From the NCBI RefSeq assembly GCF_058153355.1, contig NZ_CM177019.1: a stretch of 64,000 nucleotides of DNA; one strand, given 5' to 3'. The notes beneath the pieces are model-generated. The model searched no databases, was not told where the DNA came from, and worked only from the letters and a program-made list of their open reading frames with translations. Position numbers and translations under genes: made by a program. The first letter of the stretch is position 1, and each line of letters opens with the position of its first letter. This document shows positions 62,195-63,483 of this stretch, piece by piece.

Positions 62195-63483
62195 ATGCTG
62201 GCCAACGTGGGATATTTAACGCGGGTTAACATCGTTGTCAGAGCCGCATGGGTGAGCTGTTGCTACACCCCGGTATTTCCACCACGGAGGCCAGCATGAA
62301 CAACAATAACACATTGTACGTCGGGTTAGATGTTCACAAAGAATCGATTACTGTCGCTTATGCTATCAATTCAGAACCTGTTGAACTGATGGGTAAAATT
62401 GGCACATCACCTACTGATATTCAGAATCTTTGTAAACGTCTCAGGTCAAAGTCATCGCAGGTCAGTATCGTTTATGAAGCGGGGCCCTGTGGTTATGGAC
62501 TTTATCGTCGGCTGGTGAAATCCGGTTTTGACTGCATGGTCTGCGCCCCCTCACTTATCCCGAAAAAACCGGGGGAGCGGGTTAAAACCGATCGCCGTGA
62601 TGCCATCAGACTTGTGCGTTCACTGCGTGCAGGAGATCTTTCTGCTGTCTACGTACCCGGCATTGAAGATGAGGCATTCCGGGATTTGGCCCGGGCATGG
62701 GCATCTGCCCGCGATGATTTACGGCATGCAAGGCAACGTCTGAAATCGTTTCTTCTGGTTCATGGGGTCCATTATGTCGGGCGAGCAGATTGGGGCCCTG
62801 CACACCGACGCTGGCTCAGCAAATACTCATTCGAAAGTCCCTGGCGACAATTAGCTTTTGACGAACACCGTCGTACAATAGAAGACCGGCAGGCACAATG
62901 TGAACGGCTGGAATCCGCCCTGAAGGAGGCCGTTACCGAATGGAGGCTGTATCCGGTAGTAGAGGCGCTGCAAGCCATGCGAGGGATTCAGTTTATTACT
63001 GCGGTTGGATTAATTTCTGAACTGGGTGATCTGACCCGTTTTGAACATCCACGACAACTGATGTCATGGTTTGGTATCACGCCATCAGAATATTCATCGG
63101 GTGGAAGCAGACATCAGGGCAGCATTACCAAAGCCGGAAACAGCTATGCCAGAAAGCTATTGGTCGAGGCAGCGTGGAGTTACCGTCATCCGGCACGCAT
63201 CAGTCCGGCAATACAAAAAAGGCAGGAAAATTTACCCCGCCCCGTCATTGACAGAGCATGGGATGCTCAACTCAGGCTTTGTAAGAGGTATCGAAAACTT
63301 CAGGCCAAAGGAAAGAATGTCAATATTACAATTGTTGCTGTTGCACGTGAGCTGGCGGGTTTTATCTGGGATATGGGCCGAATAGCAATGTCTGTCGCAC
63401 AACAACCACAATGTCACAAATAAAAAATGAGAATAACCAGTTCCCTGAAGGCGACGTAGCCCGGTACAAGAGTAACCCACGTT
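62195..63483 (+). mobile_element. second IS110-family element (distinct from IS621); boundaries approximate
   Basis: DEDD recombinase ORF flanked by an inverted 9-10 bp motif cAACGTGGG (62209-62217, and its reverse complement at 63471-63480); sits between the truncated primase and the tandem repeat. Confidence 0.55.
62296..63423 (+). CDS. IS110-family DEDD recombinase/transposase
   Basis: ORF 62248..63423; likely start MNNNNTLYVGLDVHKESITVAYA (DEDD N-terminal motif LDVHK), 375 aa; C-terminal Tnp domain. Confidence 0.85.
   Translation: MNNNNTLYVGLDVHKESITVAYAINSEPVELMGKIGTSPTDIQNLCKRLRSKSSQVSIVYEAGPCGYGLYRRLVKSGFDCMVCAPSLIPKKPGERVKTDRRDAIRLVRSLRAGDLSAVYVPGIEDEAFRDLARAWASARDDLRHARQRLKSFLLVHGVHYVGRADWGPAHRRWLSKYSFESPWRQLAFDEHRRTIEDRQAQCERLESALKEAVTEWRLYPVVEALQAMRGIQFITAVGLISELGDLTRFEHPRQLMSWFGITPSEYSSGGSRHQGSITKAGNSYARKLLVEAAWSYRHPARISPAIQKRQENLPRPVIDRAWDAQLRLCKRYRKLQAKGKNVNITIVAVARELAGFIWDMGRIAMSVAQQPQCHK

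Follow-up and report, generated by a model that had tools for sequence, protein, structure and literature searches.

A stretch of 64,000 nucleotides from contig NZ_CM177019.1 (NCBI RefSeq assembly GCF_058153355.1), called the window below, contains near its downstream edge a recombinase gene placed directly after the reading frame of a P4-type primase, and behind it a sequence that is repeated in tandem. The questions raised by this locus are which mobile element it contains, where that element starts and ends, where its guide RNA is encoded, and how the repeats came about. Here we identify the element, on the plus strand from 62169 to 63688, as a complete copy of ISSso6, an insertion sequence (IS) that is already catalogued, and for which both the family and the position of the guide RNA can be found in public catalogues. 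We hold with high confidence that it is an RNA-guided DEDD-recombinase IS of the IS1111 group (IS110 family), complete and probably active, which has split the primase gene and would express a guide RNA from its right end. The only unusual feature of this copy is the tandem array of its right end, and the description of such guide-anchored duplications is a modest addition.

The region 62100-64000 of the window was compared by megablast with 5,426 complete Escherichia coli genomes. Matches were found in 608 records, where the RefSeq product name is 'IS110-like element ISSso6 family transposase', and the copies referred to below as ISSso6 are those annotated in this way. Full copies are 1520 bp long with 0-9 differences, and in differing contexts they always run from AGGCAGTATGACTTTCCGTG to CACGGAAAGTCATATC, which corresponds to 62169-63688 of the window. 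The window copy, also 1520 bp, has 0 mismatches over its full length (100% identity) to the copies of E. coli VL40 and FDAARGOS_943, and is in this sense the same element as the ISfinder entry ISSso6 (Shigella sonnei / E. coli; WP_001063816.1). Normal copies have the last 205 bp once, whereas the window copy has them at least 2.5 times. ISSso6 is tabulated as an IS1111 element with a right-end RNA (Durrant et al. 2024, PMC11208160 supplement), and the first ca 100 residues of the window recombinase match the ISSso6 protein in the data set of Siddiquee et al. (PMC11187229).

The ends have the architecture of the IS1111 group. The sub-terminal inverted repeats, in their 14-nt form TATGACTTTCCGTG at 62175-62188 with the complement at 63673-63686, are 100% complementary. 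They are 13-14 bp long and inset by 7 nt on the left and 3 nt on the right, which lies within the 7-17 bp given for IS1111 sub-terminal repeats and reproduces the inset that is the hallmark of the group (PMC11187229). The non-coding ends measure 127 bp upstream of the recombinase gene and 265 bp downstream of it, as in the IS1111 layout.

The insertion into the primase gene was found to be precise. The reading frame 61149-62189 gives a partial match to NCBIfam TIGR01613 ('phage/plasmid primase, P4 family') and stops 22 codons past the GKS of the Walker A motif, 16 of them primase codons and 6 contributed by the IS. In VL40, which shares this insertion, the primase continues in frame directly after ...GTCATATC, with its 3' part starting AGCGCTGAGATGACATCG. 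An empty site rebuilt from 30 bp of the window's left flank and 30 bp of the VL40 right flank agrees at 60 of 60 positions with genes for a 'DNA primase family protein' that are uninterrupted; the site is present in 365 genomes. The intact primase of strain SMBL has 584 residues, and the insertion follows V340 in GKQNTV^SAEMTS (GKQNTV being residues 335-340; the caret marks points of insertion or joining throughout). ISSso6 thus lies at GGTA^AGCGCT, after codon 340 of 584, with no target duplication. Insertion of this kind at a specific sequence, here nGTA^AGCG in nine sites, is a characteristic of the IS110 family. Since the element and its right flank both start with AG, this is the likely exchange dinucleotide, as has been shown for ISPpu9 (PMC12288879). 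In terms of genome annotation, this is routine: the primase of a P4-like satellite has been inactivated by an IS insertion.

The recombinase has both domains of the IS110 family, namely DEDD_Tnp_IS110 (Pfam PF01548, residues 9-153, E 6.7e-11) and Transposase_20 (PF02371, residues 223-297, E 1.6e-23), and it scores 273.9 bits with NCBIfam NF033542, 'IS110 family RNA-guided transposase' (cut-off 140). The IS1111 C-terminal motif G(L)-P----S/T-G is seen by eye in the translation as GITPSEYSSG, with I for L. An upstream ATG at 62248 would extend the reading frame to 391 aa. The window contains another IS110-family recombinase, of 326 aa at 6856-7836 on the minus strand, which the initial annotation called IS621. 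Its identity to the ISSso6 protein is only 31% over 93 aa, and the covariance model of the ISSso6-type RNA described below has no match anywhere near that gene.

We now turn our attention to the guide RNA. The region 63438-63630 has a minimum free energy z-score of -5.25, and the closing stem of its predicted fold is a 20-nt inverted repeat (63441-63460 / 63608-63627, 95% complementary). A total of 80 loci encoding recombinase relatives of 48-81% identity (Burkholderiaceae, Variovorax and various metagenome bins) were collected and their ends mapped. The right ends align well, and the RNAalifold consensus contains 48 pairs, which form a long closing stem, a first domain and a second, multi-loop domain. 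Over 37 distinct sequences, 97.1% of the cells are paired, compared to 32-42% when the partners are slid, and compensatory changes occur in 25 of the 48 pairs, compared to 4-12 in the slid controls. The covariation score is 0.237 against 0.04-0.08 in these controls, and 0 of 500 shuffles reach such values. A covariance model derived from the same alignment detects the RNA downstream of the gene and on its coding strand in 72 of the 80 loci, 36 of which were outside the seed, and gives the window copy 196.8 bits. A conserved structured RNA gene in a non-coding end is what is expected of a bridge RNA or seekRNA. The right end is accordingly predicted to encode a structured RNA of ca 193 nt, conserved by covariation, and we infer that it is expressed. 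The 127-bp left end carries no guide.

Several expectations of the initial annotation are borne out by these results. It had described a 375-aa DEDD recombinase right after the primase frame, clearly different from the IS621 protein, and had taken the element to interrupt the primase; its proposed comparison with intact P4-like primase genes did locate the insertion point and the empty site. Its placement of the guide 3' of the recombinase, in the IS1111 arrangement, agrees with the structural covariation, with the covariation between guides and flanks, and with published tables (PMC11208160). The primase frame does stop shortly after the Walker A motif, at 22 codons and not at the estimated 30 or so. 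The 20-nt repeat is also real, but what was called an adjacent repeat unit is the element's own right end, and in the predicted fold the two arms form the closing stem of the RNA and do not link element and flank.

The first domain of the RNA is an internal loop between two stems that holds two hypervariable patches. In the relatives, the 5' patch reads as the reverse complement of the right-flank sequence that starts at the exchange AG, and the 3' patch repeats the sequence of the left flank followed by AG. With 26 non-redundant elements and 10,000 permutations, the right flank and the 5' patch share 155 matches (permuted 89.9 ± 6.6, maximum 115), and the left flank and the 3' patch share 75 (permuted 40.0 ± 4.8, maximum 57). 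Loop segments that are complementary to both target strands and change with the target are a defining property of bridge RNAs and seekRNAs. In IS1111 seekRNAs, the match to the top strand has been shown experimentally to lie 5' of the match to the bottom strand (PMC11187229), and the order in ISSso6 agrees. The left-flank guide is identical to the top strand and therefore would pair with the bottom strand. The centre of the right-flank guide, AGCGCT, is a palindrome, and because of this the ISSso6 patch looks identical to its target. An early idea, that the internal AGCGCT copies the target as a guide 'identical' to it, was ruled out, as the patch is the reverse complement of the right flank in the relatives.

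Nine distinct ISSso6 sites read nGTA^AGCG(C/T)(T/C)AA, with left flanks ending in GTA, and several of the right flanks are ends of IS66-family elements, GTA^AGCGTyAACGGAG. Both guides fit the primase site well. Written as GGTA^AGCGCTGA, this site agrees with the right guide at 7 of 9 positions; of the 8 positions of the guide itself, 7 are matched (RF1-6 and RF8), with a G-U wobble at RF7. For ISSso6 and about 70 relatives the guide positions are thereby explicit and statistically supported, and they allow target prediction (GTA^AGCG, often at IS66-family ends). This explicit guide assignment for the ISSso6 subfamily is a small addition. In the second domain, the segment AUAUCAG is a candidate donor guide by analogy with the target loop, and multi-loop donor domains have been noted in IS1111 elements (Durrant et al. 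2024, PMC11208160).

It should be pointed out that a number of observations weigh against parts of this assignment. A scan of 61800-64000 with Rfam 15 at E up to 1 returned no family, so that the predicted RNA structure depends on our own alignment. No sigma-70 promoter for the RNA was found within 63380-63700, and none just upstream of the RNA. The agreement of the left guide with ISSso6 left flanks is limited to 3 nt and the core, and at position -4 the flanks usually have G, the guide C. As regards the donor domain, AUAUCAG and the right end are both near-invariant in the relatives, which makes this domain too conserved for a covariation test, and the candidates for a guide on its 5' side, CUCUGUAAU and UUACUGC, were dropped, as neither matches nor covaries consistently with the left ends of the relatives; no segment proved a convincing partner for the left end. 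The recombinase, at 375 aa, is outside the 330-350 aa given for IS1111 transposases (PMC11187229); this is a descriptive range and not a definition, and Durrant et al. file ISSso6 under IS1111 all the same. Finally, the window stops inside the array described next, which makes the number of units a lower bound and places the right junction with the primase outside the window.

The last 205 bp of ISSso6 (63484-63688), which comprise part of the guide-RNA gene and the right end, are present head to tail at least 2.5 times, with 100% identity. An extra complete unit consists of a 5'-truncated RNA gene and a full right end, with AGCGCT behind it. The unit starts at 63484, which is the A of the palindromic guide AGCGCT, and because of the palindrome the guide-coding DNA equals the right half-target. 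AGCGCT is preceded here by ACGTT, four of whose five bases agree with the left guide ACGTA. VL40, VL7S7 and O121 201805972 have the same primase insertion with one unit, and the number of units has therefore changed in place or by exchange between copies.

The junction between units was searched for with 40-nt queries able to seed only across it. Queries of 121 nt had been uninformative, since BLAST pieces of single-unit copies were joined into full-length 'places'. The 205-bp junction was found in 4 of the 5,426 E. coli genomes and in one further plasmid, all representing one locus of pINV plasmids with two units; it is on no chromosome among these genomes, and it was not found in metagenomes. 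The pINV records (L003 3855-4264, and L091) are those of the invasive E. coli RMDEC332, RMDEC364, CFSAN029787 and FDAARGOS_944, and also CP091385.1, and the two-unit copy is there interrupted by IS600 and abuts an IS66-family end. A second type of right-end duplication, of 106 bp, has the junction GTCATATC^AGCGTGATTCACC, joined at an internal ATATCAGCGT, and occurs at three loci in two genomes (L087 1819-2030 in E. coli SCAID WND1-2022, and L092 1915-2126 in FDAARGOS_943). ATATCAGCGT is the RNA segment that equals the right end plus core.

We have also considered the 205-bp unit as an independent miniature inverted-repeat transposable element (MITE), which was ruled out as it has no left-end-like sequence. 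An element of the MITEPpu9 type has end-like sequences at both boundaries; the unit begins AGCGCTTGGCGACGG and shares only AG with the left end AGGCAGTATGAC. Two identical 78-codon reading frames on the plus strand, 63558-63794 and 63763-63999, exist only across the unit junctions and are most likely not genes.

How the array arose can be explained in several ways. Quite possibly, in our judgement just short of probably, it was made without the recombinase, by slippage or unequal exchange between short direct repeats and subsequent expansion by unequal homologous recombination. The direct repeats would exist because the guide RNA gene necessarily resembles the junction of end and flank. The 106-bp type is joined at ATATCAGCGT, which with 10 bp exceeds every other direct repeat near the end, just as slippage predicts, and the 100% identity of the window units fits a recent expansion. 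The single unit at the same primase insertion in the three genomes named above is likewise in line with a number that changes in place. The 205-bp type is more difficult to explain by slippage, as it shares only 6 bp in the primase context or 4 bp in pINV while longer repeats are nearby, and its junction falls exactly on the element end and the guide.

An explanation that is possible, if somewhat doubtful, is that the ISSso6 recombinase itself made the array, with the guide-coding ACGTT^AGCGCT (63479-63489) as a pseudo-target. In one route, an ISSso6 circle would insert at the pseudo-target and the nested structure would collapse by homologous recombination, or alternatively by an excision between the inner left end and the outer right end. 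In another, the recombinase would make an aberrant choice of end at the internal AG. Each round would add one 205-bp unit and one extra right end.

In favor of this self-targeting, the unit starts at the very base where cleavage of a target would occur, and the junction GTCATATC^AGCGCTTGG is the predicted join of right end and pseudo-target. The fit of the internal site to the guides (left 4/5 plus core, right 6/8) is about that of real sites, although there is a mismatch next to the core. Microhomology is a poor alternative, as AGCGCT is only one of 34 direct-repeat pairs of at least 6 bp near the end in the primase context, and the 4 bp shared in the pINV context are about one of 400 repeat pairs. 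No duplication was seen among 53 right ends of relatives, and the palindromic guide 6-mer is found only in ISSso6 and one relative. ISPpu9 is known to recombine at alternative AG dinucleotides and shows tandem modules (PMC12288879). The identical junction at a second locus, on the pINV plasmids of invasive E. coli, also speaks for self-targeting, but the two loci are perhaps not independent, since a variant with the duplication may have moved by transposition, or homologous recombination may have transferred the duplication from one IS copy to another. A further point against it is that the reciprocal, nested IS-in-IS junction CCCACGTT^AGGCAGTATGAC is absent from the 5,426 complete E. coli genomes, from 72,556 plasmids, including 44 Shigella records with ISSso6, and from the JGI metagenomes. 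Taken type by type, self-targeting fits the 205-bp duplication better than slippage does, while slippage fits the 106-bp one.

The general form of the self-targeting proposal, that an RNA-guided recombinase targets the DNA encoding its own guide because the palindromic AGCGCT makes the guide gene double as a target half-site, we regard as rather unlikely. If it were true, the recombinase would build right-end arrays in which each unit brings a truncated guide gene and an extra, functional-looking end that is followed by a correct right half-target, and such arrays could yield length variants of the element and alternative excision products. It would be a natural case of guide self-targeting in bridge/seekRNA systems, and would caution against designing engineered bridge recombinases with palindromic guides. 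Right-end duplications that start exactly at the guide-coding sequence illustrate a side effect of the guide gene resembling the junctions it recognizes; should the recombinase be their cause, they would amount to an inherent self-targeting hazard, of importance for the programming of bridge recombinases.

It is improbable that the array is an assembly artefact at a repeated IS end that hides a single unit of the VL40 kind. Such an error would be in line with the perfect identity of the units, with the window's end falling within the array, with the absence of this junction from all complete E. coli chromosomes searched, and with the single unit that three related genomes have at the same insertion. 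However, five plasmid records that were sequenced separately contain the identical junction, which means that the structure exists in nature, and the usual error of assembly is the collapse of repeats, not their expansion.

The anatomy first drawn for this locus, an element at 62195-63483 (26 bp short on the left and 205 bp on the right) that is bracketed by cAACGTGGG and flanked by a separate repeat family, is refuted: an imperfect inverted match of 14 nt does exist (62201-62214 / 63473-63486, 86%), but it is not a terminal repeat, as all other copies reach 62169 and 63688, the empty site confirms these ends, and every normal ISSso6 copy contains one such 'repeat unit'. The GGCGACG that had been assigned to the immediate right flank lies inside the element, 63484-63688 being its own last 205 bp and 63689-64000 a further 1.5 exact copies. 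The match of AACGTGGG comprises 8 exact bases between stretches of 130 and 265 nt, for which we estimate ca 0.5 occurrences by chance, and it does not covary in the relatives; the left-end motif near 62207-62229 is constant in relatives whose RNA differs at the supposed partner.

Table 1. Features of the ISSso6 locus in window coordinates
Feature	Position	Strand	Remarks
P4-type primase gene, 5' part, codons 1-340	61149-62168	+	reading frame adds 6 IS-encoded codons, stop at 62189
Left extension AGGCAGT	62169-62175	+	outside the left sub-terminal repeat
Left sub-terminal inverted repeat ATGACTTTCCGTG	62176-62188	+	7 nt inside the left end; kept in relatives
Recombinase/transposase gene	62296-63423	+	375 aa + stop; protein identical to the VL40 copy annotated WP_001063816.1
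Predicted bridge/seekRNA gene, ca 193 nt	63438-63630	+	closing stem 63438-63462 with 63608-63630 around the target-binding domain and the second, multi-loop domain
Right-flank guide UUAGCGCU (predicted)	63482-63489	+	5' side of target-binding loop; complements target top strand AGCGCTAA, core AG included
Left-flank guide ACGUAAG (predicted)	63519-63525	+	3' side of target-binding loop; equals target top strand ..GTA + core AG
Candidate donor (right-end) guide AUAUCAG	63578-63584	+	equals last 5 nt of the element (ATATC) + core AG; 3' side of second domain
Right end	63669-63688	+	TTGACA 63669-63674; sub-terminal repeat CACGGAAAGTCAT 63673-63685; 3-nt extension ATC
Second tandem copy of the 205-bp unit	63689-63893	+	100% identical; 5'-truncated RNA gene + second right end; partial model match 101.1 bits
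Third tandem copy, cut by the window end	63894-64000	+	100% identical over 107 bp; partial model match 77.4 bits, 3' side truncated

On the basis of these features, the following mechanism can be proposed for the element. The 5' guide UUAGCGCU would pair with the top strand of the right half-target and the 3' guide ACGUAAG with the bottom strand of the left half-target, both containing the AG at which the strands would be exchanged. The second, conserved multi-loop domain probably holds the element's own ends, with AUAUCAG representing the right end plus AG. Transposition would proceed via a circle with the junction ...GTCATATC-AG-GCAGTATGAC..., and the usual targets would be GTA^AGCG, often in the terminal repeat of IS66-family elements. 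TTGACA (63669-63674), as the -35 element, and CAGTAT (62172-62177) are 17 nt apart once the ends are joined, which would create a sigma-70-like promoter TTGACA-17-CAGTAT. In the relatives, TTGAC and CAGTAT lie at fixed distances from the element ends.

It is useful to compare ISSso6 with the systems that have been characterized. ISEc11, ISKpn4 and ISPa11 are IS1111 elements with experimentally established seekRNAs (Siddiquee et al. 2024, PMC11187229). Like ISSso6, they have sub-terminal repeats, a 7-nt left extension, a long 3' non-coding region and no target duplication, and the joining of their ends forms a junction promoter, as is predicted for ISSso6. The match to the top strand is also 5' of the match to the bottom strand in all of them, the two overlapping at the insertion point. 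The differences are that the ISSso6 recombinase has 375 aa instead of 330-350, that the RNA sequence is unrelated, and that the conserved structured unit of ISSso6, here known from sequence, is ca 193 nt long whereas the peak seekRNAs measure 82-96 nt (PMC11187229).

With IS621 (Durrant et al. 2024, PMC11208160), ISSso6 has in common a DEDD recombinase and a two-domain RNA, a target that is read on both strands around a core dinucleotide, and, probably, a second RNA domain that reads the donor. In IS621, however, the RNA is in the left end, the guide order is reversed, the core is CT, and sub-terminal repeats are almost absent (PMC11208160). The putative donor domain of ISSso6 is multi-loop, as for many IS1111 elements, and differs also in this respect from IS621.

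ISPpu9 with its MITEPpu9/ssr9 (Pares-Guillen et al. 2025, PMC12288879) is an IS110-family system that recombines at AG and is followed by an additional module with repeated end sequences at its borders. Modules duplicated in tandem have been reported for it, as have alternative circles. The ssr9 module is equipped with boxes that resemble the left and the right end and is able to circularize by itself (PMC12288879), while the 205-bp unit of ISSso6 has only a right end, no left-end-like sequence, and a piece of the guide RNA gene.

The choice of target has a parallel within the same family, in that many ISSso6 right flanks are ends of IS66-family elements. IS4321 and IS5075 (IS1111 family) reportedly target the terminal repeats of Tn21-family transposons, which likewise means insertion at a fixed place in a terminal inverted repeat that belongs to another mobile element. 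ISSso6 differs from them in the family of the target element, and it also occupies non-IS sites such as the primase gene. The window itself contains an IS66-family element at 58000-60468 (tnpA/tnpB/tnpC reading frames 58075-60438) with GTAAGCG at the start of both terminal repeats; these are potential ISSso6 targets, and both are unoccupied.

Some minor observations concern the left end. A motif (C)CGTGrGG...AACGCGGGTTA(G/A)C...CCAGAGCCGCA, at 62205-62250 in the window and ca 40-80 nt inside the element, is present in nearly all relatives, including distant ones. In the form ACGCGGGTTA...CCAGAGCCGCA it can pair with the RNA segment GUAACCCrCG, with which it does not covary, and it may be a structure in the leader of the recombinase mRNA or a protein-binding site. 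Four of the relatives (L014, L027, L033 and L054) have a second left-end-like sequence, GGTTAGCATGACTGCCAGAGCC, ca 57 nt inside the left end, which repeats the ATGACT core of the sub-terminal repeat; the corresponding sequence in ISSso6 is degenerate, GGTTAACATCGTTGTCAGAGCC.

A last observation concerns the primase. In VL40 (L001 2491-4069), the same gene is found also without its 5' part, next to the IS4-like element IS421. The island is thus decaying through several independent IS events in related strains.

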